From Heterodontus francisci (Eukaryota), in NCBI RefSeq assembly GCF_036365525.1, contig NC_090390.1, positions 55,720,153-55,784,152 of the forward strand: DNA of 64,000 nucleotides, read 5' to 3'. The position numbers and the translations under genes were made by a program. The notes under the pieces are model-generated. The model saw nothing but the letters and a program-made list of their open reading frames with translations. It did no database searches and was not told the origin of the DNA. Positions 1 through 64,000 of this stretch are shown one piece after another. Numbering within the stretch: position 1 is the first letter of the stretch; every line of letters starts with the position of its first letter.

Positions 1-578
1 CTTACACGAAGCCCAAACATAAACAAAGCCTAGTGTTAACTCTAACCTAAGGCTTAATTTAGTCCAAACGCTAGTGCTCAATCTAAGGTTGAGGCAAGGA
101 TCCACTGAACTTGTGGTTGCCCAAAGTTCTGCTCTCAGACAGAACAATGGATATATTGAGGAAGGGCCCAGCAGGGGCATGCTAGTGGTAGGAATGGCTG
201 CAAAAGCTGTCTTGCAAGGTGAATTCACACGCAGCCCATCAATTACCCTTTTGCAACAGACAATTGATGTGCAAGGAAACTAGCAGGGTCAGTCAGCCAC
301 AATAGCATTGAATGTGGCTGACTCAGATGCAGGGCCATTCCAGTGCAGTCCTTAAGGAACTTTAGTGCCTCCCGAATCCCAGCAGGATATCAGTGAATTC
401 TTGCAGCTAGCCAGCACAATTCCTCCTTCCATAACTGAGTCATTCAAAAAGAAAAATTGTAAGTTAGCCATCAGGTCAGCAAGAAACTATAAGCACAAAG
501 GGGAAAGACTATCAATAGATAAAGTTAACAACATTCACACATGACACAGTGGGTTAAATAAATACACTGCACTTGATT

Positions 579-2409
579 TGAACACACTTAACAAATTCTT
601 CCCCATCTGATCCCTTAGCACTAAGGCAGTCCCAGTCATTATTAGGGAAGTTAAAATCACCTACTATTACAACCCTATAATTCCTACACCTATCTGTGAT
701 TTCCCTACATATATGCTCCTCCACTTCCCTCTGACTATTGGGGGGCCTATAGTATAATCCCATCAAAGTGATCACCCCTTTCTTATTTCTAAGTTCTACC
801 CAAATGGCCTCGCTGGACATTCCCCCCGGGATGTCCTCTCTAAGTACTGCCGTGATGTTCTCCCTAATCAATAGTACACTTCCCCTCCTCTCTTACTTCC
901 ACCTCTGTCACGCCGGAAGGATTGGTACCCCGCAACATTGAGCTGCCAGTCCTGCACATCCCTCAACCATGTTTCCGTAATAGCTATAATATCACAATCC
1001 CATGTACCGATCCATGCTCTGAGTTCATCTGCCTTACCTGTAAGGCTTCTTGCATTAAAGTAAATGCAGTTTAGCCTACCAGACCTTCCACGCTCCCTGT
1101 CCTGCCCCTGCCCGGCCTGCCTGCTGGACTTGCTTGGTTTAACCTCTACGTTTGCCTCAATTATCTCATCGGAGAGACTACTACTTTGGGTCCCATCCCC
1201 CTGCAAGACTAGTTTAAACACTCCCGAGTAATACTAGCAAATCTCCCCACAAGGATATTGGTCCCCCTCCAGTTTAGATGCAACCCGTCCTTCTTGTACA
1301 GGTCACCTCTGCACCAGAATAGATCCCAATGATCCAAGTAGCTCAAGCCCTCACGCCTACACCAGCCACGCATTCATTTGCCTAATCCTCCTATTTCTAC
1401 CCTCACTAGCACGTGGCACAGGGAGTAATCCTGAGATTACAACCCTAGAGGTCTTGCTTTTTAACCTTCTGCCTAACTCCCTATATTCACTTTTCAGGAC
1501 TTCATCTCTCTTCCTGCCTATGTCGTTAGTACCAATATGGACCACGACCTCTGGCTGCTCACCCTCCCCTTTCAGAATGTTCTGCAACCGCTCCGAGACA
1601 TACTTGACCCCAACACCAAGGAGGCAACTTAACATCCTGGAGTTTCGTTTGTGGCCACAGAAACGCCTATCTGCACCCCTTACAATATTATCCCCTATCA
1701 CTATAGCTCTTCCAACCCTTTTCCTCCTCTGCTGTGCAGCAGAGCCCTCCGAGGTGCCACGAACTTGGCTGTTGCTGCTTTCCCCTGGGAGGTCATACCC
1801 CAACAGTATCCAAAACGGTATATCTGTTTGAGAGGGGAATGGCCACAAGGGACTCCTGCACTACCTGCCTGTGCCTACTGCTCCGTCTGGTGGTCACCTA
1901 TCTCTTTTCTGCCTGTGCAGCCATTACCTGCGGTGTGACCACCTCTCTAAACGTGCTATCCACGACTTCCTCAGCATTGCAGATGCTCCACAGTGAATCC
2001 ACCCGCAGCTCCAGCTCCGTAATGCGGGTAGCCAGTAGCTGCAGATGGATACACTTCCTGCACACATGGTCTTCAGGGACACTGGAAGCGTCCCTTATTT
2101 CCCACATAGCGCAGGAGGAGCATATCATGGGGCTGAGCTCTCCTGCCATGACTTACCCTTAGGTTAATTAGTTGCTCTCTTCATTTAAAAATGCTAATTA
2201 TACTAGGGGCCTTGTTGTACCCAGTTCAATCTAAAGTCCTTAAAAAAAAACTTTAGTAGTTCTCACCTTATCACCAGAGATATTTTTTTCAAAAAAAAAC
2301 CCAACTTTCCCCTTCAACCAATCACCTCTGACGTCACTGTTTGCCTTTTCTTTTTCAAAACTCCGGTGCACTGGAAGAGCTCCGGTCCTCTCCGCTCCGC
2401 TCCCGGAAG
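579..2409 (-). mobile_element. CR1 LINE, 5' half only (5'UTR, ORF1 Zn-finger/coiled-coil plus SGNH esterase, APE N-terminus of ORF2); 3'-truncated
   Basis: ORF fragments 1898-2149 (CSSC...CRKC then leucine-rich helix), 1357-1848 (IVIGDNIV, HIGTND) and 554-1221 (YFNARSL, AITETWL, YYRPPN, VGDFN). Colinear in reverse with 10366-12258. Confidence 0.95.
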
Positions 2410-2694: not shown

Positions 2695-5230
2695 GGTGGC
2701 ATAGTGGTATTGTTACTGGACTATTAAACCAGAGACCCAGGGTATTGCTCTGAGGACATGGGTTCAAATCCCACCACAGCAGAAGGTGGAATTTGAATTG
2801 AATTAATAAATCTCGAATTAAAACCAAGTCTAATGATGGCCATGAAACCATTGTCGATTGTTGTAAAAATCAATCTGGTTCACAAGGGAAGGAAATCTGC
2901 TGTCCTAACCTGGTCTAGATTTGATTCCAGACCCACAGCAATGTGGTTGACTCTTACATGCCCTCTGAAATGGCCTAGTAAACCACTCAGTTGTACCTAA
3001 CTGTGACCAAGCCAATAAAGAATGAAACCGGCCGGAGCACCCGACATCGACCTAGGTATCGGAAACGACAACGGCAAACCCAGCCCTGTTGACCCTGCAA
3101 AGTCCTCCTTACTAACATCTGGGGGCTTGTGCCAAAGTCGGGAGAGTTGTCCCAAACACTTGTCAACTACAATCTGTAACCTCATGGCCTGGCATATTCC
3201 CCACTCTACCATTACCATCAGGCCGTGAGACCAACCCTGGTTCAATGAAGAGTGCAGGAGGGCATGCCAGGATCAGCACCAGGCAGACTTCAAAATGAGG
3301 TGTCAACCTGGTGAAGCTACAAGCCAGGACTACTTGCATGCCAAACTGCGTAAGCAGCATGGGATAGACAGAGCTAAATGATCCCATAACCAATGGATCA
3401 GACCTAAGATCTGCAGTCCTGCCACATCCAGTCGTGAATGGTGGTGCACAATGAAACAGCTAACTGGAGGAGGTCACTCCGTAAATATGCCCATCTGTAA
3501 TGAGGGGGGAGCCCAGCACATCAGTGCAAAAGGCAAGGCTGAAGCATTTGCAACCATCTTTAGACAGAGGTCCCGAGTTGACGATCCATCTCGGTCTCCT
3601 CCTGAAGTCCCCAACATCACAGATGCCAGTCTTCAGCCAATTCTATTCACTTCGCGTGATATCAAGGAACGACTGAAGGCATTGGATACTGCAAAGGCTA
3701 TGGGCCCTGACAACATTCCGGCAATAGTACTGACAACCTGTGCTCCAGAACTTGCCGCAGCCCTAGGCAAGCTGTTCCAGTACAGCTACAACATTGGTAT
3801 CTATCCTACAATGTGGAAAATTGTCCAGGTATAGCCTGTACACAACAAGCAGGATAAGTCCAACCCGGCCAATTACCACCTCATCAGTCTACGCTCAATC
3901 ATCAGTAAAGTGATGGAAGGTATCGTCGACAGTGCTATCAAACGACACTTGCTTAGCAATAACCTGCTCAGTGACTCTCAGTTTGGATTCCGCCATGGGC
4001 ACTCAGCTCCTGACCTCATTACAGCCTTAGTTCAAACATGGACAAAAGAGCTGAACTCAAGAGATCCAGTGAGAGTGACTGCCCTTGACATCAAGGCAGC
4101 ATTTGACCGAGTAAGGCATCAAGGAGCCTTAGCAAAACTGAAGTCAATTGGAATCGGGGGGAAAACTCTCCACTGGTTGGAGTAATACCTAGCGCAAAGA
4201 AAGATGGTTGTGGTTGTTGGAGGTCAATCATCTGAGCTCCAGGACATCACTGCGGGAGCTCCTCAGGGTAGTGTCCGAGGCCCAACAATCTTCAGCTGCT
4301 TCACCAATGACCTGCCTTCAATCATAAGGTCAGAAGTGGGGATGTTCGCTGATGATTGCACAATGTTCAGCACCATTCGTGACTCCTCAGATCCTGAAGC
4401 AGTCCGTGTAGAAATGCAGCAAGACCTGGACAATATCCAGGCTTGGGCTGATAAGTGGCAAGCAACATTTGTGCCACACAAGTGCCGGGCAATGACCGTC
4501 TCCAACAAGAGAGAATCTAACCATCTCCCCTTGACAGTCAATGGCATTACTATTGCTGAATCCCCCACTATCAACATCCGAGAGGTTACCATTGACCAGA
4601 AACTGAACTGACAGTACCGTGGCTACAAGAGGAGGTCAGAGGATAGGAGTCCTGCGGTGAGTAACCCACCTCCTGACTCCCCAAATCCTGTCCACCATCT
4701 ACAAGGGACAAGTCAGGAGCATGATGGAATACTCTCCATTTGCTTGGATAGGTGCAGCTCCGACAACACTCAAGAAGCTCAACACTATCCAGGACAAGGC
4801 AGCCCACTTGATTGTCACCCCATCCACAAACATTCACTCCCTCCACCACCGACGCACAGTGGCAGCAGTGTGTACCATCTACAAGATGCACTGTAGCAAT
4901 GCACCAGGGCACCTTAGACAGCACCTTCCAATCCCGCAACCTCTACCTCCTAGAAGGACAAGGGCAGCAAATGGTTGGGAACACCATCACCTGCAAGTTC
5001 CCCTCCAAGCCACACACCACCCTGACTTGGAACTATATCGCCGTTCCTCAACTGTCGCTCGGTCAAAATCCTGGAACTCCCTTCCTAACAGCTCTGCGGG
5101 GGTCCCTACTCCACATGGACTACAGCGCTTCAAGACAGCTCACCACCACCACCTCAAGGGCAATTAGGGATGGGCAATAAATGCTGGCCTAGCCAGCGAT
5201 GCCCACATCCCATGAATGAATTAAAAAAAA
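2695..5230 (+). mobile_element. CR1-group non-LTR retrotransposon with a tRNA-derived 5' head, no ORF1, internal deletion of most of the APE domain; degraded RT ORF
   Basis: A box TGGCATAGTGG 2697-2707 and B box GGTTCAAATCC 2761-2771. APE start KVLLTNIWGL at ~3099. RT motifs ALDIKAAFDRV, GAPQGSVRGP, MFADD in ORFs 3451-4611. C-terminus to 5167, then tail ...CATGAATGAATT(A)n. Confidence 0.92.
2697..2771 (+). promoter_or_regulatory. Type 2 Pol III internal promoter (A box and B box) at the head of the LINE
   Basis: Matches to TRGCNNAGYGG and GGTTCRANTCC consensus, 53 nt apart. Confidence 0.8.
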
Positions 5231-9749: not shown

Positions 9750-10265
9750 CATTTCTCAGTTTGAGTTCTACCAGGGCCTCTCATCTCCAGACCTTATTAC
9801 AACCTTGGTCCATACATGGACAGAAGAGCTGAATTGAAAAGGTGACATGAGAGTGATTGCTCTTGAGATCAAGGCAGCATTTGACTAAGTGTGGCATCAA
9901 AGAGCCCCAGCAAAATTGAAGTCAATGGGAATTAGTGGGAGAACTCTCCAGCGGTTGGAGTCATACCCATCACCAAGGAAGATAGTTGTGGTTTTTGGAG
10001 GCCAATCATCTCAGTCCCAGCTCATTGCTGCCGGAGTTCCTCAGGGTAGTGACTAGACCTAGTCATCTTCATCAATAACCTTCCCTCCATCATAAGGTCA
10101 GAGGTGGAGACATTCACTGATGATTGCACTGTGTTCAGTACCATTCACAACTTTTCAGATATTTAAGCATACATCAAGACTTGGATAACATTTAGGTTTG
10201 TGCTGATAAGTGGCAAATAACATTAGTGTTACAAAAGTGCTAGGCGATGGCCATCCCCAACAACA
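9750..10265 (+). mobile_element. RT fragment of the tRNA-headed CR1-group LINE family
   Basis: Colinear with 3970-4505 (ALEIKAAFD, GVPQG). Confidence 0.85.
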
Positions 10266-10694
10266 TTCTGGGAGTAGAGCAGAGAGGACCAGAGCGGACC
10301 TGTGGGGAGAACGCTGGGAGAGGAGCCTATAAATCAACCCCGAGGATAGAGGCCCAGTCTCTCACCTTCCGGAGCGGAGAGGACCGGAGCGGACCTGTGG
10401 GGAGAACGCCGGGAGCGGAGAGGAGATCTTCCAGTGCGCCGGATTTTTGAAAAAAAAAGGGCAAACAGTGATGTCAGAGGAGAGCTGCAAGGTGATTGGT
10501 TGGTGAGTAGCAGCTGTTAGAATATCTTTAAAAAAAGGGGAAATTTTTTTTTGTTGGAAAAAAAAATCTCTGTGATAAGGTTTCTACTAAAGTTTTTTTT
10601 TAAGGACTTTAGATTGAACTGGGTAGAACAAGGCCCCTAGTATAATTAGCATTTTTTAATGAAGAGAGCAACTAATTAACCTAAAGGGTAAGTC

Positions 10695-11645
10695 ATGGCA
10701 GGAGCGCTCAGCCCCGTGATATGCTCCTCCTGTGCTATGTGGGAAATCAGGGACGCTTCCAGTGTCCCCGACGACCATGTGTGCAGGAAGTGTATCCATC
10801 TGCAGCTACTGGCTACCCGCAATATGGAGCTGGAGCTGCGGGTGGATTCATTGTGGAGCATCTGCAATGCTGAGGAAGTCATGGATAGCACGTTTAGTGA
10901 GGTGGTCACATCGCAGGTAATGGCTGCACAGGCAGAAAAGGGATAGGTGACCACCAGACAGAGTAGTAGGCGCAGGCAGGTAGTGCAGGAGTCCCTTGTG
11001 GCCATTCCCCTCTCAAACAAATATACCGCTTTGGATACTGTTGGGGGGATGACCTCCCAGGGGAAAGCAGCAACAGCCAAGTTCGTGGCACCTCGGAGGG
11101 CTCTGCTGCACAGCAGGGGAGGAAAAGGGTTGGAAGAACTATAGTGATAGGGGATTCTATCGTAAGGGAGGCAGATATGTGTTTCTGTGGCCACAAATGA
11201 GACTCCAGGATGGTAAGTTGCCTCCCTGGTGCTGGGGTCAAGGATGTCTCGGAGCGGCTGCAGAACATTCTGAAAGGGGAGGGTGAGCAGCCAGAGGTCG
11301 TGGTCCATATTGGTACTAATGACATAGGCAGGAAGAGAGATGAGGTCCTGCAAAGTGAATATAGGGAGTTAGGCAGAAGGTTAAAAAGCAGGACCTCTAG
11401 GGTTGTAAATCTCAGGATTACTCCCTGTGTCACGTGCTAGTGAGGGTAGGAATAGAAGGATTAGGCAAATGAATGCGTGGCTGAAGAGCTGGTGTAGGCG
11501 TGAGGGCTTGAGCTACTTGGATCATTGGGATCTATTCTGGTGCAGAGGTGACCTGTACAAGAAGGACGGGTTGCATCTAAACTGGAGGGGGACCGATATC
11601 CTTGTGGGGAGATTTGCTAGTATTACTCGGGAGTGTTTAAACTAG
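10695..11645 (+). pseudogene. CR1 ORF1 (Zn-finger/leucine zipper plus SGNH esterase), disrupted
   Basis: In-frame TAG at 10944 and frameshifts. Motifs CSSC..CRKC, GDSIV, GTND, DGLH. Confidence 0.9.
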
Positions 11646-11779
11646 TCTTGCAGGGGGGTGGGACCCAAAGTAGTAGTCTCTCAGATGAGATAGTTGAGGC
11701 AAATGTAGAGGTTAAACCAAGTAAGTCCAGCAGGCAGGCCGGGCAGGGGCAGGACAGGGAGCGTGGAAGGTCTGGTAGG

Positions 11780-14553
11780 CTAAACTGCATTTACTTTAAT
11801 GCATGAAGCCTTACAGGTAAGGCAGATGAACTCAGAGCATGGGATTGTGATATTATAGCTGTTACGGAAACGTGGTTGAGGGATGTGCAGGACTGGCAGC
11901 TCAATGTTGCGGGGTACCGATCCTTCCGGCGTGACAGAGGTGGAGGTAAGAGAGGAGGGGGAGTTGCACTATTGATTAGGGAGAACATCACGGCAGTACT
12001 TAGAGAGGATATCCCGGGGGGAATGTCCAGCGAGGCCATTTGGGTAGAACTTAGAAATAAGAAAGGGGTGATCGCTTTGATGGGATTATACTATAGACCC
12101 CCCAATAATCAGAGGGAAGTGGAGGAGCATATATGCAGAGAAATCACAGATAGGTGTAGGAATTATAGTGTTGTAATAGTAGGTGATTTTAACTTCCCTA
12201 ATAATGACTGGGACTGCCTTAGGGCTAAGGTGGAGAAGAATTTGTTAAATGTGTCCAGGATAGTTTTCTGAAGCAGTATGTGGATGTTCCTACTAGAGAA
12301 GGGGCTACACTTGACCTCCTCTTAGGAAATGAGGATAGGCAGGTGGTTGATGTGTCAGTGGGGGAGCACTTTGGGACCAGTGACCACAACTCAATTAGCT
12401 TCAAGATAGTTATGGAAAAGGATAGGACTGGTCCTCAGGTTGAAGTCCTAAATTGGGGGAAGGCTAATTTCGATGGCATCAGACAGGAACTCTCAAAAGT
12501 TGAATGTGAGAGGCTGTTTACAGGTAAAGGGACGTCTGGCAAGTGGGAGGCTTTTAAAAGTGAGATAGGAAGAGTTCAGGGCTGGCATGTTCCTGTTAGA
12601 TGGAAGGTCAAGGCTGGCAAGTTTAGGGAACCTTGGTTGACGAGGGATATTGAGGGTCTGGTCAGGACAAAGAAGGAGGCATATGTCAGGTATCGGCAGC
12701 TAGGATCGAGCGAGTCCCTCGAGGAGTATAGGGGATGTAGGACTACACTTAAGAAGGAAATTAGGAGGGCAAAAAGGGGCCATGAGATTTCCCTGGCAGA
12801 TAAGATAAAGGAGAATCCTAAAAGATTCTATAAGTATATTAAGAGTAAAAGGGCAGCTAGGGAGAGAGTAGGTCCCCTTAAGGATCAGTGTGGCAATCTA
12901 TGTGTGGAGCCATAGGAAATGGGAGAGGTCTTAAATGAATATTTCTCATCCGTATTTACTGTGGAGAAGGTCATGGAAGCTAGTGAGTTCAAGGGAGGGA
13001 ACACCGATATCCTGGAGCATATCAACATTACAAAGGAGGAGGTGTTGGAAATATTGAAGCACATTAAGGTGGATAAATCCCCAGGGCCTGACCAGGTGTA
13101 TCCTAGGATGCTATGGGAAGCAAGGGACGAGATTGCTGGGGCCCTGGCAGAGATTTTTGTATCATCGTTAGCCATGGGTGAGTGGAGGATAGCGAATGTT
13201 GTGCCATTATTTAAGAAGGGCAGCAGGGATAAGCCAGGGAACTACAGGCTGGTGAGCCTTACATCAGTAGTGGGAAAGTTACTGGAAGGGATTCTAGAAG
13301 GCAGGATTTAAATGCATCTGGAAAGGCATGGTCTGATTAGGGATAGTCAGCTTGACTTTGTGCATGGGAAATCATGTCTCACGAATTTGATTGAGTTTTT
13401 TGAGGTGGTGACCAAGAGGATTGACGAGGGCAGGGTGATTGATGTTGTCTACATGGACTTTAACAAGGCCTTTGACAAGGTCCCGCATGGTAGGCTGGTC
13501 CAGAAGGTTGGAACACATGGGATCCAGGGTGAGCTAGCAAATTGGATACAAAATTGGCTTGGTGAAATGAGGCAGAGGGTGGTAGTGGAGGGTTGTTTGT
13601 CAGATTGGAGGCCGGTGACCAGTGGTGTGCCGCAGGGATTGGTGCTGGGCCCTCTGTTGTTTGTCATATATATTAATGACTTGGATGTGAATGTAAGGGG
13701 CATGATTGGTAAGTTTGCAGATGACACCAAAATTGGTGGTATCATGGACAGTGAAGAAGGTTGTCTAAGGTTACAATAGGATATAAATCAACTGGGAAAG
13801 TGGGCAAGGGATTGGCAAATGGAATTTAATGCAGACAAGTGTGAAGTGATGCATTTTGGGAAGTTAAACCAGGGCAGGACATATACAGTGAATGGCAGGG
13901 CCCTGGGGAGTGTTCTTGAGCAAAGAGACCTTGGGGTGGAAGTACATAGTTCCCTGAAAGTGGCAACACAGGTAGACAGGGTGGTGAAGAAGATGTATGG
14001 AATGCTTGCCTTCATCGGCCGAGGCATTGAGTACAAGAGTTGGGACGTCATGTTACAGTTGTACATAACGTTGGTTAGGCTGCATTTGGAGAACTGTGTG
14101 CAGTTCTGGTCGCCACACTACAGGAAAGGTGTGATTAAGCTAGAGCAGGTGCAGGAAAGATTCACAAGGATGTTGCCTGGTTTGGAGGGCTTGAGCTATA
14201 AAGAGAGATTGGATAGGCTGGGTCTGTTTTCCCTGGAGCGAAGGAGGCTGAGAGGGGACATGATAGAGGTATATAAAATTATGAGAGGCATAGATAGAGT
14301 AGATAGCCAGAGTCTGTTTCCCATTGTAGGGGTGACTAAAACTAGAGGGCATAGATTTAAGGTGAGAGGGAGGAGGTTTAAAGGGGATCAAAAGGGTAAA
14401 TTTTTCACACAAAGATTAGTGGGTATCTGGAATGAGCTGCCAGAGGAGGTGGTGGAGGCAGGAACAGTAGCGACATTTAAGAGGCATCTGGACAGGTACT
14501 TGAATGAGCAAGGCACAGAGGGATATGGAATTAATGCAGGCATGTGGGATTAG
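11780..14553 (+). pseudogene. CR1 ORF2 (APE endonuclease plus reverse transcriptase), disrupted
   Basis: Consecutive ORF fragments 11876-12271, 12280-12915, 12919-13311, 13312-13779 and 13819-14553 with canonical APE and RT motifs. Confidence 0.95.
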
Positions 14554-15464
14554 TATAGATAGGCATTATGGTCGGCATGGACACGGTGGGCCGAAGGGCC
14601 TGTTTCTATGTTGTACGACTCTCTGACTCTATATCAACAGGGCACACTAAAAATACGATCTGCTGTTCATCAAAGTCACACAAAACTGTTTGGTAATTAA
14701 CAGAATTAGGTTGTAAAAACTATGCAGATTCCCATTGCATTTAACCATAAAGTCCACGGGAAGCTGAGAAAATTTCAAAATGTACATTGCAGAGGCTCAT
14801 GAGATACAAAACTATTAATTGAAAACCAATTCAGAAATCACTCACACATGTAGTAAAATGAAATATAAAACTAAAAATTCTATGAAATAATGAAAACTGA
14901 CATTTTAAATTCTAAACCTGACTCATTTAACTCGACTGCTGTGTACAGCACAACCATCCAATACTAGTTTACGATTTCTTTCCTGCATTTCTATGGTCAC
15001 TGACATTCTATAATATGCCCTGGGGAGTTTCGTTATCTGTGGGATGGCTTCATTTAATTGAATATTTAATGCTCTCATGAACTTTTCTTGAATAAGACTG
15101 ATAACAGGAATATGCACCCACCTCAGCTTGCTCTTGAAAGTGCAACATTCTGACAAAGCCTGCTTCTGGCTAGATTGAGAATCCAGTTGTTATGTTCAAT
15201 AAATTAAAAATAATCAGCAGATAGATCCTCATTGTCTCACTTGTTACACAACATGTGATTTCATTATTTTCAGCATAACTGTGTAAATATGTGGGTGCAG
15301 TTTTGAGGGTGAATTATCCAGTGATCCAGTGGTTCAGGGGCACAAGAGGCATTGGGGGACTGGAATATCGATAACAGATCCATACAGTAAAATATGTGCC
15401 ACAGTGACTTTATAAGCTTGAGCTCATTCAAAATACTGCTGACGATATCCTAACTCAAACCAAA

Positions 15465-21620: not shown

Positions 21621-21669
21621 AATGTTATAAAGTGCCTGGTCAAAAGAGTACAATAGGACTGGATAATAT

Positions 21670-22390
21670 CCAGACTTAGGTTGACCAGTGGCAGATATCA
21701 TTTGTGCCATGAAGTGCCTCAAGTAAGCAAATCCCAGGTGCCTCCCCTTCACCTTCAATGACCCTACCATTGCTGAGTCTCCAACTACCTACATTCTAGG
21801 GGTCACCATTGACCAGAAGTTTAACTGAACTAACCGCATCAATACTATGACTACAAGAGCAAGGCAGAAACTGGATACTCTGTGGCAAGTGGCTCACCTC
21901 CCGATCCCTCAAATACTCTCTACCATCTAGAAATCTCAAGTCAGGAGTGGAATGAATTATTCAAAATTGACCTGGAAAGGTGCAACTGCAGCTACACTCA
22001 AGAAGCTCAACACCATCCATCAAGGTGCAGTTCTGTTAAATGGTGCCCCTGCAATTGGACTCAATATCCATCTCCTTCACTGGTGCACTTTGGCAGTAGT
22101 ATGTACAGTCTACAGAGTGCACTGTAGCAATTCATCAAGGTTATTTTGACAGTGCCTTGCTCTACTGCAGCCTCTATGACCAAGAAGAACAAGTTCAACA
22201 ATGTTGTGGGAACACTGTCACCTCCAAGTTCCCACTGAAATACTCAGCCATCCTGACTTGGACTTATATCGGGGTTCCCTCATTGTCACTGCATTTGATT
22301 TCTGGAATTTCCTACCTAATACTTTTTTGGGAGCACTATAACCAACTTGTCAGGGCAATGAGAGATGAGCAATAAATGTGGTCTACATTC
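21670..22390 (+). mobile_element. Old 3' fragment of the tRNA-headed CR1-group LINE family
   Basis: Colinear with 4430-5200 (ATLKKLNTIH, AVVCTVYRVHCSNS; GGGCAATGAGAGATGAGCAATAAATG tail). Confidence 0.8.
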
Positions 22391-23179
22391 TTACAAGTGA
22401 GAAAAGTACAAGTTAAGGAGGTTGAAAACTGAGGTAATACAACATTACAATTGCTGGGATAGGGTAATTATAGATGACTAGAATACATCAGCATTTTCCA
22501 TGCTAAAAGTGGAATTAGGAATTTATAATGGAAAAAGTTCACAAGTACATTTATGAATTTGAATAAGTTGGTCTAGTTGATTGTTCCCAGGGCATTGCAT
22601 ATAGGTTAGAGTCAAGGCAGTTTAATTGGATCTTTCTTATGGGCAAGAAGCAGGGGGGGGCATGTCAAACCTGCCAGATAGCATCAATTCGAGGTCAGGC
22701 TATTTTAACTTCAGGGCCTAATTTAAATTCAGCTGGCCAGCTGCCAGTATGAAATTGGCAGAAAGAAGCAGCTTGCTGTTCAACTTCGCAGCTCTTGTGA
22801 GATCATTGGACCTTTTCTTACACTGAAGCCAGGTTGTGGGATGATGCTGCTGGCACTGACCCTGCCAGCCACCTCTGTCCAGGCTAGTTGGTTAGTGACC
22901 CTGGTGTTGCTCCTGCAGATGCTGGGGAACAGTATCTTCTCGATACGATTGACTGGGCAGCCTATCAATCATATTAAAGCAAGATGTGGGAGGTAAAATC
23001 ACCCAGGCCTCAAGCTAGCAACATTGGTGGAGATGCCGAAATCTCACAACAGGTCACAACAGGGAAACCTGTGAAGTTGGAGCGAAGAAAGATTGTCCCC
23101 AAGCTTCTTTAGACTGTCCTAGACCCTCCTCCTCTGTCTCTTATTTTTCCTCTTTTCCATGTCTAGCAATGTTTGACTT

Positions 23180-26100
23180 ATTTATTCATTCATGGGATGT
23201 GGGCATTGCTGGCAAGATCAGCATTTAATGCCCATTCCTAATTGGTTTTGAGAAGGTGATAGTGAACCACCTTCTTGAAACACTGGAATCTGTGTGGCGA
23301 AGATATTTCCACAGTGCTGCTAGGGAAGGAGTTCCAGGATTTTGACCCAGGAGGATCAAGGAATCGCAATACATTTCCAAGTCAGGGTAGTGTGTGACTT
23401 GGAGGTAGTGGTTTACCCATGCTCCTACTGTCTTTGTCCTTCTAGACATGTGCTTTGGTGAAAAGGCTTGGAGAGTCAGAAGGTGAATCTCACCACAGAA
23501 TACCCAGCTTCTGGCCTGCTCTTCTAGCCACAGTATTTATTTGGCTGCTCCGGTTAAATCTGTCAATGGTGACCTCCCCAGGATATTGATGGTGGGGAAT
23601 TCAATGATGGTAATGTCATTGAATGTCAAGGGGAGGTGGTTAAACTTTCTCTTGTTGGTCATGACCACTGCCTGGCACTTGCTATTTGTTATTTGCCACT
23701 CACCAGCCCAAACCTGAATGTTGTCCGGGTCTTGCTCTATACAAGCATGGATTGCTTCATTATCTGCGGAGTTGCAAATGGAACTGGACACATTGCAATC
23801 ATCATGAAACATCCACACTTCTGATCTTATGTTGGAGGGAAAGTCATTGATGAAGCAGCTGAAGATTGTTGGGTCTAGGACACTAGCAACTCCTGCAGCA
23901 ATGTCCTGGGGCAGATATGATTGGCCTCCAACAACCACAACTGCTTCAATTGTTGCTAGGTATGACTCCAACTAATGGAAAGGTTTCCCCCGATTCCAAT
24001 TAACTTCAATTTTATTAAGGCTCCTTGATGCCACACTTGGTCAAATGCTGCCTTGATGTCCAGGGCAGTCACTCTGACCTCACCTCTGGAATTCAGCTCT
24101 TGTCCATGATTGGACCAAGGCTGTAATGAGGTTTAGAGTGCTCCTGGCGGAACCCAAACTGAACATTGGTGAGTAGGTTACTGATGAGTATGTGCTGCTT
24201 GATAGCACTGTCAACAACACATTCCATCACTTTGCTGATTGAGAGTAAGCTGATGAGGTGGTAATTGGCCAGATTGGATTTTTGTGGCAAGACATACCTG
24301 AGCAACTTCCCGCTTTGTTGGGTAGCTGCACTGGAACAGTTTGACTAGAGTTCTGGAGCACAAGTCAAGAGCAATACTGCCAGCATGTTGTCAGGACCCA
24401 CAGCCTTTGCTGTATCCAGTGCGCTCAGCTATTTCTTGATATCACATGGAATTAATCGAATTGGTTGAAGACTGGCTTCTGTGATCATGGGGACCCCAGG
24501 AGGAGGCTGAGATGGATCATCAACTCTGACTGAAGATGGTTGAAAACTTTTCAGCCTTGTCTTTTACACTGATGAGCTCTGTTCTGCCATCATTGAGGGT
24601 GGGAATATTTTTGGAACTTCCTCCTCCAGTCAATTGTTTAATTTTCCACCATCATTCATGACTGGATATGGAAGGAGTACAGAGCTTTGATCTGATCCAT
24701 TGGTTGTGGGATTGCTTAGCTCTGTCTACAGCCTGTTGATTCCACTGTTTCGTAGGCACACAGTCCTGCATTGGAGCTTCAGCAGGTTGACACCTCACAG
24801 TTAGATACTACTGCTGCTGCTCATTGGACCAGGATTGATCCCCTTGTTTGATGGTAATGGCAGAGTGAGTGATATGCCAGGTCATGAGGTTACAGATTAT
24901 GGTGGAATACAATTCTGCTGTTGCTAATGGCCCACTGCACCTCACGAATGCTCAGTATTGAGCTGCTAGATCTTTTCTCAATCTATCCCATTAGGATGAT
25001 GGTAGTGCCACACAACATGATGGAAGATGTCCTCAGTATGAAGATGGAACCTTTTCTCAACATGGACAGTGCGGTTGTCACTCTTATCAATACTGTCATG
25101 GATAGATGCATCTGTGACAGGTAGATTGGCAAGGATGAGGTCAGCAGGTTTTTCCCTCATGTTGGTTCTCTCAACCACCTGAAACAAACCTGTCAGTCAG
25201 CTATGTCTTTCAGGACTCAGCCAGCTCAGTCAGTAGTGGTGCTACTGAGCCACTCTTGGTGATGAACATTGAAGACTCCAGCCAGAGTACATTTTGCACC
25301 TGCGCTTCTTCCTATTGATCTTCAACATGGAAAAGCACTAATTTATCAGCTGAGAGAGAGCAAGAGGTTTTCTTGCTCATGTTTGACATGATGCCATGAG
25401 ACTTCATGGTGTTCAGAGTCAATATCGATGCCTCTTCCTCCCAACTGTGTACCAATGTACCACCACGTTTGGATGTATCATGAGGGATGGTGATGGATGA
25501 GTCAGGGACGTTGGCTGAAAAGTATGATTACGTCAGGCTGTTGCTATAGCCCTCTCAGGGCTGAAAGTTGAGGCCCTAATGGGGGTGGGCTTGAAGGCAG
25601 GTGGGTACAGAATTTTGCACCGCCGACCAGCGTACCGGATCCCTGACTCCATCCCACCCCCAGGCCATTATCCAGGAGGAGGGATAGGGTGGGTGGCGTG
25701 TGAGAAGCCAATTAAGCCAATTAAAGGCTTATGAATGCCTGTTGTCGAAGGCCAACTGGAGTTTTCCAGTTGGTCTCCAGGACCCCGGAGATGTCAGGGA
25801 ACAGTATACATGCCTGGAAGTGGACTTTACAGCACGTGTCTTTGTTCTGGTGTGTCCACATCCAATGCCATCCATCTGATTTCACTCTTATTATACTTTG
25901 TCACAGCAGTTTGGTACAACCGAGTGGTTTGCTAGGTCATGTCAGCGGTAAGTTAAGAATCAAGCACATTGCTATGGGTCTTGAGTTACATATAGGGTAG
26001 ACCAAGTAAGGATGGTACATTTCCTTTCCAAACAGGCAGTAATGAACAAGATGGGCCTTTGCAACAATCCAGTAGTTTCATGGTTATCAAATATTCCATA

Positions 26101-26225
26101 TTTATTTAATTAACTGAATTTAAATTCCCCAGCTGTCATGGTGGGACTTGAACTCATGTCTGCAGATCATTAGTCCCAGCCTCTGGATTACTATTTCAAT
26201 AACATAACCACTAGTCTACCATTCC
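23180..26225 (-). mobile_element. Second, older near-full-length copy of the tRNA-headed CR1-group LINE (APE retained), interrupted by a MITE-like insert
   Basis: A box TAGACTAGTGG (26218-26208) and B box AGTTCAAGTCC (26154-26144). Same head-to-ORF junction as 2975-3006. APE remnants 24880-25545 (DLILANLPVTDASIHDSIDKSDNRTV), RT 23537-24305, 3' tail at 23180-23240. Confidence 0.9.
25558..25815. mobile_element. Harbinger-type MITE fragment inserted in the LINE
   Basis: Starts GGGCTGAAAGTT; CCAATTAAG repeats; interrupts LINE colinearity. Confidence 0.5.
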
Positions 26226-28295: not shown

Positions 28296-28943
28296 AGAGC
28301 AGCCACCCCTCCACTGTGCTCCTCTGGCCTCCTGCTGTCTAGGAGTTTGCATCTGCCTCAGCTCATCCTGGCTGCTCTGTCCAATGTCAGAGTAGCCTGT
28401 TCCTATCTGAACTCCCTCAGCTCGGCTTTGTGCCTTCACCAGGCCTTCCCCTACCAACTCCATCTGCCCAAGTGAAACCTTATGTCCCTTCTCCAGATTC
28501 CTGTCACTCATCACTGAGGAAAGCAAGTTTTACAGCTGCAGCAATGGCTACTCTGTGGCACTTTTGAAGCAGCTGAGCTTTTTTTGGTCCTCTGCAGTTT
28601 CTTAATCAGCCCTTCCCACAGCCCTCAGGGCCCCCTGCTGTGTTCACATCTTGAACATCCTGTTAAGATCCCCCATAGTGTCCTCCACATTCCCAGCCTT
28701 TAAAATTAAAACCTGCTGCTGACAAGCCTGATAATGAGTTCTTCAATGAGCTGAACATGCAATTAATTGGAAGCGAGCGCCCAACCCATTCCCTCGTTGC
28801 TGGCATCCTTTTAAAAATGGCGGCATGTTCCGGAGATGGCAGTTCCCAATGCCGACCTCCAAAAACACGATATTCAAATTGCGCTCGCCTCCATACTCAC
28901 ACTCAGCAAGTTTTAAAAATCCCGTCCTACATGTTCCCTAGTG

Positions 28944-30456
28944 GGGCCTTGACAGAAATCTTTGCATCCTCACTGGCTACAGGTGAGGTCCCAGAGGACT
29001 GGAGAATAGCCAATGTTGTTCCTTTGTTTAAGAAGGGTGGTAAAGATAATCCAGGAAATTATAGGCCGGTGAGCCTTACGTCACTGGTAGGGAAACTATT
29101 AGAGAGGATTCTTCGGGACAGGATTTATTCCCATTTGGAAACAAACAAACTTATTAGCGAGAGACAGCATGGTTTTGTAAAGGGGAGGTCGTGTCTTACT
29201 AATTTGATTAAGTTTTTTGAGGAAATGATGAAGATGATTGATGAGGGAAAGGCAGTGGATGTTGTCTATATGGACTTTAGTAAAGCCTTTGACAAGGTCC
29301 CGCATGGCAGACTGGTGCAAAAGGTGAAGTCACATGGGATCAGAGGTGAGCTGGCAAGATGGATACAGAACTGGCTCAGTCACAGAAGACAGAGTGTATC
29401 AGTGGATGGGTGTTTTTCTGAATGGAGGGATGTGACTAGTGGTGTTCCGCAGGGATCAGTGCTGGGATCTTTGCTGTTTGTAGTATATATAAATGATTTG
29501 GAGGAAAATGTAGTTGGTCTGATTAGTAAGTTTGCGGACGACACAAAGGTTGGTGGAGTTGCGGATAATGATGAGGATTGTCAGAGGATACAGCAGGATA
29601 TAGATCGGTTGGAGACTTGGGCGGAGAAATGGCAGATGGAGTTTAATCCGGACAAATGTGAGGTAATGCATTTTGGAAGGTCTAATGCAGGTGGGAGGTA
29701 TACAGTAAATGGCAGAACCCTTAGGAGTATTGACAGGCAGAGAGATCTAGGCGTACAGGTCCACAGGTCACTGAAAGTGGCAATGCAGGTGGATAAGGTA
29801 GTCAAGAAGGCATACGGCATGCTTGCCTTCATCGGTCGGGGCATAGAGTATAAAAATTGGCAAGTCATGTTGCAGCTGTACAGAACCTTAGTTAGGCCAC
29901 ACTTAGAATATTGCGTGCAACTCTGGTCGCCACACTACCAGAAGGACGTGGAGACTTTGGAGAGGGTACAGAGGAGGTTTCCCAGGATGTTGCCTGGTCT
30001 GGAGGGCATTAGCTATGAGGAGAGGTTGGAAAAACTCGGATTGTTTTCACTGGAACGACGGAGGTGGAGGGACGACATGATGGAGGTTTACAAAGTTATG
30101 AGCGGCATGGACAGAGTGGATAGTCAGAAGCTTTTTCCCAGGGTGGAAGAGTCAGTTACTAGGGGACATAGGTTTAAGGTGCGAGGGGCAAAGTTTAGAG
30201 GGGATGTGCGAGGCAAGTTTTTTACACAGAGGGTGGTGAGTGCCTGGAACTTGCTGCCAGGAGAGGTGGTGGAAGCAGATACGATAGCGACGTTTAAGAG
30301 ACATCTTGACAAATATGTGAATAGGAAGGGAATAGAGGGATATGGGCCCCGGACGTGCAGAAGGTGTTAGTTTCGGCAGGCATCAAGATCGGCGCAGGCT
30401 TGGAGGGCCGAATGGCCTGTTCCTGTGCTGTACTGTTCTTTGTTCGTTGTTCTAGT
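28944..30456 (+). mobile_element. 5'-truncated young CR1 LINE with an uninterrupted RT/C-terminal frame
   Basis: Open frame to 30370 with YMDFSKAFDKV, GVPQGSVLG and KFADD. 3' hairpin and GTTCTTT-type tail. Possible TSD CTAGTG at 28938-28943 and 30457-30462. Confidence 0.95.
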
Positions 30457-37199: not shown

Positions 37200-37800
37200 T
37201 TGGAGGCTGGGAGTTCTGTGGCAAGTAACCCACCTCCTGACTCCCTAAAGTCTGCCCACCATCTACAAGGTACAAGTCAGGACTGGGATGGAATATCCTC
37301 CACTTGCCTGGATGGGTGCAGCTCCAACAACACTCAAGAAGCTCGACACCATCGAAGACAAAGTAGCTCGCTTGATTGGCACTCCATTTACCACCTTCAA
37401 CATTCACTCCCTTCACCAGCGACACAGTGGCAGCAGTGTGTCCCATCTACAAGATGCACTGCAGCAATGCACCAAGGCTCCTTAGACAGCACCTTCCAAA
37501 CCCGCAACCTCTACTGCCTAGAAGAACAAAGGCAGCAAACGCATGGGAACACCACCACCTGCAAGTTCCCCTCCAAGTCACACACCATCCTGAATTGGAA
37601 CTATATCGCCGTTCCTTCACTGTCGCTGGGTCAAAATCCTGGAACTCCTTTCCTAACAGCACTGTGGGTGTTCCTACCTCACATGGACTGCAGAGGTTCA
37701 AGAAGGCGGTTCACCACCACCTTCTCAACGGCAATTAGGGATGGGCAATAAATGCTGGCCTGGCCAGCGACATCCACATCCCGTGAAAGAATAATTTTTA
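37200..37800 (+). mobile_element. 5'-truncated 3' fragment of the tRNA-headed CR1-group LINE family
   Basis: Colinear with 4640-5225 (MEYPPLAWMGAAPTTLKKLDTI; WEHHHLQVPLQVTHHPELELY). Confidence 0.92.
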
Positions 37801-38149
37801 AAAACATACTTCACTTACACTTGCCTTTGACTCAATTCTCTCCACTGATTATTTTCAATTTTTATTTTCTTCAATCTCACTGTTATTATTGCCTGGTCTC
37901 ATTATCAGTCTTGGAAGTGTGGGTAAAAAGTGATGCCCAGAAACAAGGACTGAAAATGTATAGGCATAAATGATGAGCTCAACCAATAAAGTGATTTCTT
38001 GTTACAAATATAGGCTTGTTATTGCCAGGCAAGTTACCATCGCAATGACAGTGGTTTTCTGATTGTGGCTGTGCTGCCCTTGCTTATTCTATGTCTGTAT
38101 TGCTGTGCTGATTTTTTTTAATGCAAAGAAAAGAATTAGCGTAAGGAGT

Positions 38150-57549: not shown

Positions 57550-60500
57550 ACAGGAAGATAGGAACAGGAGTAGGCTATTCAGCCCCTTGAGCCTGTCCCA
57601 CCATTCAATGAGATCATGGCTGATCCACGGCCTAACTCTATATACCTGCCTTTGGCCCATATCCCTTAATATCTTTGCCTAACAAAAATCTATCTATCTC
57701 AGATTTAAAATTAACAACTGTTCTAGCTTCAACTGCTGTTTGTGGGAGAGAATTCCAAACCTCTACCACCCTTTGCGTGAAGAAGTGCTTCCTAATATCT
57801 CTCCTGAACGATCTGGTCCTAATTTTTAGACTATGCTCCTAGTTTTAGAATCTCCAACCAGTGGAAATAGTTTCTCTTTATCTAGCCTGTTTTTTCCTGT
57901 TAATATCTTGAAGACTTCGATCAGATCACCCCTTAACCTTCTAAATTCTAGCAAAAACAGGCCTAATTTGTGCAATCTCTCCTCGTAACTTAACCCCTGT
58001 AGTCCAGGTATCATTCTTGTAAACCTACGTTGCACTCTCTCCAAGGCCAATATATCCTTCCTAAGGTGTGGTGCCCAGAACTGCTCACAGTACTCCAAGT
58101 GGGGTCTAACCAGGGTTTTGTACAGCTGCAGCATAACCTCTGTGTCTTTATACTCCAATCCTCTAGATTTAAAGGCTAGCATTCCATTAGCCTTTTTGAT
58201 TATTTTCTGCACTTGCTCGTGGCATTTTAAATATCTACATACCTGAACCCCCAAGTCTCTTTGGACATCCACTGTACTTAACCTCTTCCCATTTAGAAAA
58301 TACCCTGCTCTATCCTTTTTTGGTCCAAAATGGATAATCTCACACTCGCCTGCATTGAAATCCATCTGCCACAGTTTTGCCCACTCATCTAGTCTGTCAA
58401 TATCTCTTTGCAATTTTATGCTATCATCTAGACTGTCTACAATGCCGCCTAACTTTGTATCATCAGCAAATTTGGATATATGACTTACTATGCCATCATC
58501 CAAGTCATTAATGAATAATGTGAATAATTGAGGCCCCAGCACAGATCCCTGTGGGACACCACTAGTCACATCCTGCCAATCGGAGTACTTACCCATTATC
58601 CCCACTATCTGTCGCCAACCAATCAACCAACTTCTTAACAATGTCAATAATTTGCCCTCAACTCCATGGGCTTCTACCTTAGTTAACAGTCTCTTATGTG
58701 GGACTTTATCAAATGCCTTCTAGAAGTCCATATAAATAACATCCATAGACATTCCCCTGTCCACTACCTTAGTCACTTTTTCAAAAAATTCGATGAGATT
58801 TGTCAGGCATGACCTTCCAGTCATGAATCCATGCTGGCTGTCCCTGATTAACTGAAAATTTTTCGAGATGTTCAGTCACCCTATCCTTGATTATAAACTC
58901 CAGCAACTTGCCCACCACAGATGTCAGGCTAACTGGTCTGTAATTTCCTTGGTTCCCCCTTTCACCCTTCTTAAAAAGTGGAGTGACATGTACAACTTTC
59001 CAATCCAGAGGGACCACTCCTGAATCTAGGTAACTCTGAAAGTCTATAGTTAGAGCATCTACAATGTGCTTCCCTACTTCCTTTAACAGCCTTGGATGGA
59101 AACCATCAGGTCTTGGGGATTTCTCACTCTTTAGTTCCATTAATTTCCTTGTTACTGATGTTTTACTTAGTCCCTGTCCCCTATCGGCTATTAATTTTTT
59201 CGGGACTTCCGACAGGTTATCCTCCTTTTTCAACAGTAAATACTACGGCAAAGTAACTGTTCAACATGTCTGCCATTTCCCCATTTTCAATGACAATGGC
59301 CGGAATTTTACATCACTCCAAGGGGTTGGATGGTGGCATGGGGGCAGCGTAAAATTGAGCGGCTGGCTCCGGGAGGCCTACCCGCCCCGATTCCGCCTCT
59401 GACCAAGTTTACAGAGGTCCAATGTGGGGTAGCGGGGGGTGGGAAAACGGCCCTCCCACCCGAGGCTAATCAAGACCCTTAAGTGCCACTTAAGGACTCT
59501 TGCCCGCCTCCACAGGTATTTTACTCGTGGCAAGCGGGTGTGCTGGGGACGTGAAAGGCCGCCCAGCTATAGCTGCCAGCCTTTCTGCACCCCGGGGGGG
59601 GGGGGGGGGGGGCCATGTCAGTCGAGCACAGGGTGCCCAATTGAGGGCCGCCTCTGCCTCCCAACCCAACCCCGGGATCTAAGACGCCCCCTCCCTAGTC
59701 TGTCTCTCCCAATCTATGTGTAAGTTAAAATCCCCCAATAATACTACTCTGCCTTTGTTACATACTTGCCTAATTAGTGCATTTATATGATCTACCACCT
59801 CAGAACTGCTACCAGGGGGTCTATACACAATACCTATTATAGTTTTAGATCCTTTTCTTTTCCTCAATTCCACCCATAAGGTCTCCACTGGATGCTTTCC
59901 CCCCATTATATCCTCCCTCACCAATGAGGTGATATTATTTCTAATCAGTAAGGCTACTCCACCCCCTCTGCCATTTTCCCTGTCCCTCTTGTAAACTTTA
60001 TAACCAGGTATATTTAGTTCCCAGTCCCGACCATCCTGCAGCCACGACTCCGCAAAGGCCGCCACATCATAATCTTCCATTTGAATTTGTGCCTGCAGTT
60101 CATCCAGTTTATTCCTTACACTCCGTGCATTTGTATATAGTACTCTTATTTGAGCTATACCCCCTAACCTGTCCCTCAGCACTGATGCTTTATTCGCCTG
60201 TTTATTATTTCTCTCTTTTGGTTTAACCAGTATACTTCTTGCAGTTTTGCCATTACCTGCAGTTCCTGACTGTTTGTTTGTTTGTTTCTTTCTTTACTCT
60301 CTGCCCTGTTACTTGTTTTTGAAACTATATTGACTACCCGAGGCCTCCCCCTCCTCCCCGCCCCCCCCCCACCCCCCCCCCCCCACCCCCCATTTACTAG
60401 TTTGAAATCCTTGTGACCACCCTATTTATCCTTTCCGGTAGGACACTGGTCCCAGATGGGTTCAGGTGGAGCCCGTCCCAACGGTGCAGTTCCCTTCTGT

Positions 60501-62640: not shown

Positions 62641-64000
62641 AGAATTAGAACATTACAGCGCAGTACAGGCCCTTCGGCCCTCGATGTTGCGCCGACCTGT
62701 GAAACCATCTGACCTACACTATTCCATTTTCATCCATATGTCTATCCAATGACCATTTAAATGCCCTTAAAGTTGGCGAGTCTACTACTGTTGCAGGCAG
62801 GGCGTTCCACGCCCCTACTACTCTCTGAGTAAAGAAACTACCTCTAACATCTGTCCTATATCTATCACCCCTCAACTTAAAGCTATGTCCCCTCGTGTTT
62901 GCCATCACCGTCCGAGGAAAACGACTCTCACTATCCACCCTATCTAACCCTCTGATTATCTTGTATGTCTCTATTAAGTCACCTCTCCTCCTCCTTCTCT
63001 CTTACGAAAACAACCTCAAGTCCCTCAGCCTTTCCTCGTAAGACCTTCCCTCCATACCAGGCAACATCCTAGTAAATCTCCTCTGCACCCTTTCCAAAGC
63101 TTCCACATCCTTCCTATAATGCGGTGACCAGAACTGCACGCAATACTCCAGGTGCGGTCTCACCAGAGTTTTGTACAGCTGCAGCATGACCTCGTGGCTC
63201 CGAAACTCGATCCCCCTACTAATAAAAGCTAACACACCAAATGCCTTCTTAACAGCCCTATTAACCTGGGTAGCAACTTTCAGGGATTTATGTACCTGGA
63301 CACCAAGATCTCTCTGTTCATCTACACTACCAAGAATCTTCCCATTAGCCCAGTACTCTGCATTCCTGTTACTCCTTCCAAAGTGAATCACCTCACACTT
63401 TTCTGCATTAAACTCCATTTGCCATCTCTCAGCCCAGCTCTGCAGCCTATCTATGTCCCTCTGTACCCTACAACATCCTTCGGCACTATCCACAACTCCA
63501 CCGACCTTCGTGTCATCCGCAAATTTACTAACCCACCCTTCTACACCCTCTTCCAGGTCATTTATAAAAATGACAAACAGCAGTGGCCCCAGAACAGATC
63601 CTTGCGGTACACCACTAGTAACTAAACTCCAGGATGAACATTTGCCATCAACCACCACCCTCTGTCTTCTTTCAGCTATTCAATTTCTGATCCAAAGCTC
63701 TAAATCACCTTCAACCCCATACTTCCGTATTTTCTGCAATAGCCTACTGTGGGGAACCTTATCACATGCCTTACTGAAATCCACATACACCACATCCACT
63801 GCTTTATCCTCATCCACCTGTTTGGTCACCTTCTCGAAAAACTCAATAAGGTTTGTGAGGCACGACCTACCTGTCACAAAACCGTGCTGACTATCGCTAA
63901 TGAACTTATTCTTTTCAAGATGATTATAAATCCTGTCTCTTATAACCTTTTCCAACATTTTACCCACAACCGAAGTAAGGCTCACAGGTCTATAATTACC
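62641..64000 (-). mobile_element. Young CR1 LINE, 3' portion (continues beyond window)
   Basis: ORFs 63680-63985, 63002-63658 (GVPQGSVLGP, KFADD) and 62714-62938; (TTCTAA) tail at 62641. Confidence 0.96.

Follow-up and report, generated by a model that had tools for sequence, protein, structure and literature searches.

The window analysed here is a 64,000-nucleotide stretch of the Heterodontus francisci genome. It contains a LINE copy with a tRNA-derived head, together with other pieces of the same family. Compared by eye, this family appears to be the elasmobranch Zenon of Stuart et al. 2026 (PMC13343379), which belongs to the CR1 group. The family features in the window are as follows.

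2695..5230, + strand: decayed copy of the tRNA-headed LINE, apparently a Zenon (CR1 group), 8.4% off the column majority of 19 copies
2695..2782, + strand: tRNA-derived head, closest to the genome's tRNA-Leu(AAG/TAG) among four isotypes tested
2697..2707, + strand: A box TGGCATAGTGG, present in 46/55 young and 8/10 older copies
2761..2772, + strand: B box, present in 47/55 young and 7/10 older copies
2783..2995, + strand: remaining 5' UTR, without a Deu domain, common to the companion SINE (family nt 1-323)
3022..3024, + strand: conserved out-of-frame AUG (family nt 354) of a uORF 46 codons long, overlapping the start of the endonuclease
3099..3166, + strand: codons 1-22 of the APE endonuclease, the other ~720 bp being deleted in this copy
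3163..5167, + strand: linker, reverse transcriptase and C-terminus, disrupted by stops and a single frame change; the family stop codon occupies 5165-5167
5156..5230, + strand: 3' end (~77 nt), common to the companion SINE, terminating in ATGAATGAAT and a short A tail
23178..26213, - strand: second, older family copy with head, APE, RT and tail in order, 72-81% identical to a young copy
37205..37804, + strand: 5'-truncated 3' fragment of the family, with T5 ahead of its A tail

The copy at 2695-5230 is a dead element, because ~720 bp of the endonuclease are missing at 3163/3166 (with a 4-bp overlap), six internal stops are present (3226, 3379, 3832, 4183, 4609 and 4658) and the frame changes near 4612. 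It also begins ~8 nt downstream of the family start. An earlier note on this DNA had described an A box at 2697, a B box at 2761 and a head that runs uninterrupted into the endonuclease start KVLLTNIWGL at 3099, with no ORF1 between the two; the arrangement is as described. ARAGORN made zero tRNA calls within the window, and the Rfam tRNA model scored 19.3 bits on the head, below the gathering cut-off of 29. The older copy carries an insertion of ~340 bp at 25529-25871. Further old family fragments lie at 9755-10263 (+) and 21659-22319 (+), with 70-77% identity; they contain a few T4 runs, as expected from decay. Ordinary CR1-type LINE copies are found at 1-2160 (-), 10275-14632 (+), 28940-30097 (+), 58009-60149 (-) and 63062-64000 (-).

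The family itself begins with the tRNA-Leu-like head. A query covering the head-ORF junction gave 3068 first-look candidates in the 6.0-Gb genome, 40 of which were scored. Thirty-nine candidates were taken with their flanks, and 18 collinear head-to-tail copies (3.0-3.7 kb) were aligned with the window copy, leaving out those that were truncated, inverted or interrupted. The column majority of these 19 copies is 3.29 kb long and has a stop-free frame of 975 codons; the aligned copies differ from it by 3-6%. The element has a single APE-RT frame, and the Pfam families Exo_endo_phos and RVT_1 match natural copies. There are 430 nt between the start of the element and the APE, the longest AUG frame in this region has 46 codons, and the upstream ORF1 that, by the earlier note, would have counted against its reading is absent from the family.

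A junction query selects for the junction, so the unit was tested again from each side. In these searches, which report the best-scoring copies and so favour well-preserved ones in the counts, 17 of 29 copies anchored in the APE extend to nt 1-5 (one of them via an internal deletion), and the other 12 end at scattered truncation points in family sequence and have unrelated flanks. Twenty-eight of 29 copies anchored in the head run on into the ORF, the remaining one being internally deleted, and in 23 of the 30 copies retrieved with the older window copy head sequence leads into the ORF, at 72-94% identity. The contiguity seen at the locus holds family-wide, in copies, subfamilies and species, and one junction is found in nearly all copies examined, in place of the few copies with variable junctions that the earlier note had allowed for. 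The head, 5' UTR, APE-RT frame and tail mobilise as a single unit. The old and young majorities differ at 62 codons synonymously and at 30 non-synonymously, which shows that the ORF was under purifying selection while it was joined to the head.

Pieces of the family protein match proteins named from two sharks at 74-85% identity. Contigs from four other runs (organisms A, B, F and C, whose RNA status is guessed) cover all 30 family bins, and one organism-B contig spans the head to the APE. No close relative of the LINE was found in the viral contigs searched.

The head was compared with the genome's tRNAs of four isotypes, which gave z values of about 9 for Leu, 7 for Ser, 6-7 for Thr and 2-5 for Lys. 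In the alignment to the genome's tRNA-Leu genes the start of the head coincides with the tRNA start. The A and B boxes are retained across subfamilies, in sharks and in a ray; the B box of the ray Zenon consensus is apparently one base short, as judged by eye. No tRNA-headed relative from outside the elasmobranchs is present among the matches listed, which comprise 80 metagenome loci, many of them too short to reach the 5' end. At least six B-box-like matches occur upstream in the metagenome loci, and these lack an A box and a tRNA call.

SacSINE1, LmeSINE1 and AmnSINE1 are Deu-SINEs that, in the available text of PMC5499810 and PMC4824008, are similar to the companion SINE described below in tRNA head, shark host and size. 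Identity of the head with Deu/SacSINE1 was rejected, as Deu motifs are at chance level in a full copy; the separation was made via the Deu motif and the genome's own Deu SINE. The Deu-motif SINE of H. francisci, with 112 exact motif matches, is a separate family with a different tail, and BLAST found no similarity between it and the LINE head outside the B box (best E 0.08). This tRNA-headed SINE (L359-L366, for example G000:C2:7867716) has an L2-type tail and is likely to be the SacSINE1 of this genome. Many of the Deu-motif matches are clustered on C44 and C46.

Several other tRNA-like loci were observed. ARAGORN calls tRNA-Ser at locus L402 (1500-1580), where a family head has lost 13 nt; heads with such deletions can inflate tRNA gene counts. 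A tRNA-Ser(AGA)-type tandem array at G000:C34:12636732-12762173 contains over 50 units with ~2.15-kb spacing. Many near-identical tRNA-Thr(TGT) loci (L367-L383 and L394-L396) have broken T tracts (T3) and no T4 downstream; these are possibly repeats, or genes with non-standard terminators.

The available text of PMC13343379 describes elasmobranch Zenons as elements of 2.9-3.3 kb without ORF1, with an A tail, and so far absent from repeat repositories. The tRNA-headed LINE is like them in length, in the absence of ORF1, in its A tail and, by eye, in the first 400 nt. In the available part of Table S2 of that paper, seven elasmobranch Zenon consensus sequences open with the family head (first 400 nt, by eye), namely CarCar_Zenon-1, RhiTyp_Zenon-1, ScyCan_Zenon-1, HypSab_Zenon-1 and SquAca_Zenon-1 to -3. 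Their hosts are the white shark, whale shark, catshark, dogfish and a stingray. The two hagfish Zenons and one coelacanth Zenon given there do not open with this head, and by eye they contain T4+ runs within the first 400 nt. The lack of ORF1, which the earlier note had taken as pointing to Pol III, is on the available text a general Zenon trait and is therefore uninformative on the polymerase.

In the available main text of PMC13343379 the terms tRNA, polymerase III, Pol III and promoter have zero occurrences, the available supplement text does not mention tRNA, and the account of Zenon given there is without promoter type, T depletion or companion SINE. We also compared the available text of PMC3747384, PMC9004415, PMC5753468, PMC3520738, PMC11481361, PMC7245038 and PMC10572872. 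No coding LINE with a tRNA head or Pol III transcription is described in the literature searched. The family head or SINE may be present under another name in Repbase, Dfam, SINEBase, subscription journals or the PMC5499810 supplement. The Zenon family is published, and its tRNA promoter is apparently undescribed. In a quick RT tree, which had no labelled Zenon, the LINE joins two named proteins of Lepidoptera (SH-aLRT 87), and the family lies among lepidopteran and invertebrate-type elements, apart from the genome's CR1s.

The LINE has a companion SINE family of ~400 bp, which consists of LINE nt 1-323 fused to the last ~77 nt. The SINE head is identical to the young LINE majority at 294/323 positions and to the older majority at 304/322, and each of the four other runs (organisms A, B, F and C) has contigs that contain the joint. 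The SINE is non-coding and non-autonomous; the LINE itself is coding, with its ORF under purifying selection. The SINE is likely to have come from an older LINE subfamily by ORF loss, which is the simplest origin, and then to have been mobilised in trans. The order may also be the reverse, the LINE having acquired the head of a pre-existing SINE through recombination in the UTR common to both, since the head tree gives no supported root that places the SINE within the LINEs.

Bipartite SINEs, as described in the available text of PMC5786205, are made up of a tRNA head, a LINE 5' part and a LINE 3' part, and are unable to encode protein. The companion SINE shares this anatomy in its head, 5' UTR and last ~77 nt. 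The autonomous LINE of bipartite SINEs is reportedly without a tRNA head, whereas here the coding element itself has the head. The clades contributing to bipartite SINEs are reportedly only RTE and Vingi.

The + strand of 2695-5230 contains 0 T4 runs, 10 A4, 7 C4 and 5 G4. The earlier note had pointed out this absence of T4 beside frequent A4, the many T4+ runs of the CR1 at 10275-14632 (we count 12) and the lack of T4 in 37200-37800 except at its terminus, where there is a single T5 at 37795-37799; all three observations stand. For the window copy alone, base shuffles give P=0.014 for T4=0, and T3 occurs 8 times against 19.4 expected. The main test used 934 codons from KVLL and 2000 synonymous shuffles preserving codon usage. 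T4 was observed 0 times against 2.0 expected (P=0.09), T3 4 times against 12.5 (0/2000 shuffles this low), windows with four T in five once against 8.7 (P=0.002) and TT 76 times against 95. Runs of A, C and G are at expectation. Under a dinucleotide model T4=0 has P=0.15-0.17. With the TT count fixed, P is 0.06 for T3, 0.06 for 4-of-5, 0.02 for 4-of-6 and 0.53 for T4, and overall the cluster measures give P=0.02-0.14.

The depletion of T clusters on the sense strand is real and family-specific. Most of it is a shortage of TT. Such a shortage is expected from terminator avoidance but is not a unique sign of it, and since the residual depletion is borderline with TT fixed, the TT loss may have another cause. 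Of the earlier proposal that the family is under selection to avoid terminators, to be checked against codon- and composition-preserving shuffles, one part stood: T3 and 4-of-5 clusters are depleted, and on the sense strand only. The absence of T4, on which it had been based, is not significant by itself (P~0.09).

The control LINEs were two CR1-type families present in the window, one of them the element at 10275-14632; they have 10 and 7 T4 runs, with observed/expected ratios of 0.8-0.9. Among 80 metagenome LINE frames T4 is absent solely from one 71-codon piece, and in every frame of at least 300 codons T3 reaches 0.75 of expectation or more. In two metagenome frames with equal T content (0.20) T runs are at expectation. 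The nearest metagenome relative among the matches listed (37% identity) contains 20 T4 runs, and the 1 kb upstream of it lacks a B box; this ~1 kb (L210 1-1100) is without ORF1 or tRNA head and contains a short direct repeat at ~390-485. Phe makes up 1.9% of residues in the LINE protein, the lowest value among 22 proteins compared.

The column majority has no internal T4+ run, which the earlier note had named as a point to check. Natural copies contain 9 T4+ runs in 51,643 bp (16 copies), and a count across 197 kb of copies gave 30 T4 runs, a single CpG site accounting for ten; T4 runs in individual copies arise by decay. T3 sites are common to the old and young majorities, so these two are not independent tests.

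Short A tails are present in both LINE and SINE copies, with AATAAA at the tail junction in most. A single T precedes the A run in 29 of 48 intact tails, T4 or more is found in 11 of the 48, and no inherited 3' Pol III terminator is present in these tails. The lengths of T and A are anti-correlated (rho -0.45, P=0.002, n=44), and an inherited terminator was rejected as the main reading of the terminal T run. Flanking T runs serve as terminators for many SINEs. In B2, Dip and Ves, according to the available text of PMC8466645, terminators lengthen by T as the A tail shortens below ten, or near A10. The tRNA-headed LINE resembles these in T growth at the junction with the A tail; B2, Dip and Ves differ in being non-coding and in having an inherited terminator, where the LINE mostly has one T. 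In light of this T elongation on shortened A tails, the T5 at 37795-37799 is better read as T added to a short A tail, probably after insertion. At internal T-A4/5 junctions the A-to-T rate is not raised (1/199), so the T-extension process appears peculiar to the long tail. For 11 full-length copies, target site duplications around head plus body average 2.6 nt, compared with 1.9 nt for shuffled pairs, which is no significant excess over chance (P=0.125); two copies have 5 nt or more.

The family has ten AUGs upstream of the APE start. The last of these, at nt 354 (window 3022), is intact in 101/113 copies, and its context is the same, by eye, in five published shark/ray consensus heads. The first Met of the endonuclease frame is at codon 285 of 975. 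Shared variants in the overlap between AUG-354 and the APE are mostly CpG decay and favour no frame, and no standard slippery heptamer was seen by eye in this region. APE initiation may occur by a non-AUG start, a frameshift (perhaps a programmed one out of the AUG-354 frame) or re-initiation. Folding of the leading 473 nt gives z -2.7, with 2/100 shuffles as good, and is not evidence of an IRES.

The tRNA-derived promoter at the start and the avoidance of T runs on the coding strand together suggest that the LINE is transcribed by Pol III, which we consider the best explanation and probably correct. TFIIIC would bind the A and B boxes of the head, and Pol III would initiate, in the manner of SINEs, at the first G. 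Termination of the 3.3-kb RNA would occur at the first downstream T run, and this uncapped RNA would be translated via a non-standard start. The encoded protein would copy the RNA back by target-primed reverse transcription, and each full-length copy would thereby regain the promoter. The SINE (family nt 1-323 plus the last ~77 nt) would result from ORF loss in an older subfamily and be mobilised in trans. We put at about even the chance that the whole of this holds, namely that the family is an autonomous protein-coding SINE, stable since the shark-ray split, with a 3.3-kb uncapped Pol III RNA, a non-standard start and a SINE derived by ORF loss. R2 is site-specific, has a restriction-like endonuclease and no internal promoter, and its RNA is a Pol I co-transcript freed by a ribozyme. 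R2 is itself a LINE, its RNA is something other than a capped Pol II product, and its ORF is read without a standard start; the tRNA-headed LINE is proposed to share these last two properties.

The element could alternatively be a Pol II LINE that captured a tRNA or SINE head as its 5' UTR and is low in T from another cause; we regard this as rather unlikely. The captured head could provide a Pol II start or RNA structure, or its boxes could be merely passengers, and low T could reflect composition, codon choice or avoidance of U-rich RNA signals. Capped RNA would make translation easier, AATAAA lies at the tail junction of most copies, and the T signal is mostly TT depletion, T4 depletion alone being not significant. 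To our knowledge, all LINE promoters are Pol II or depend on host co-transcription. A possible conflict of LINE and Pol III cis-signals is also noted in the available text of PMC5786205. Against a Pol II origin of the RNA stand the boxes and the exact tRNA-like start, which are conserved across subfamilies, sharks and a ray, and a depletion that is T- and strand-specific and absent in 82 other LINE frames, including composition-matched ones. Ten AUGs ahead of the APE start are also poor for cap-scanning.

A dual mode, in which Pol III RNA is copied to DNA and the protein comes from Pol II read-through or a Pol II start in the head, would explain promoter retention and T avoidance without the translation of uncapped RNA, and thousands of copies (3068 candidates) could act as read-through sources. 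We think it improbable: the purifying selection on the ORF (62 vs 30) has its simplest explanation in an RNA that is both copied and translated, the cis preference established for other LINEs. Hardly any probability attaches to a chance or rare chimera at 2695-5230, with a SINE inserted beside a 5'-truncated LINE. The head does occur as a free SINE in the H. francisci genome, but the chimera is refuted by the one junction shared by nearly all copies, the older subfamilies and the published consensus sequences of five species.

Pol III transcription of the tRNA-headed LINE would be simple to test experimentally, as the unit is only 3.3 kb long and has a single ORF. The current split sets LINEs, which are transcribed by Pol II and encode protein, apart from SINEs, which are transcribed by Pol III and are non-coding. 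If Pol III transcription is true, this split would be broken by a coding element whose tRNA promoter has persisted in both sharks and rays, and a SINE would be reachable in one step, by deletion of the ORF. The family would also be a natural example of a long, translated RNA made by Pol III, an enzyme thought to be limited to non-coding RNA, and the 430 nt of its leader would make a candidate element for cap-independent translation.
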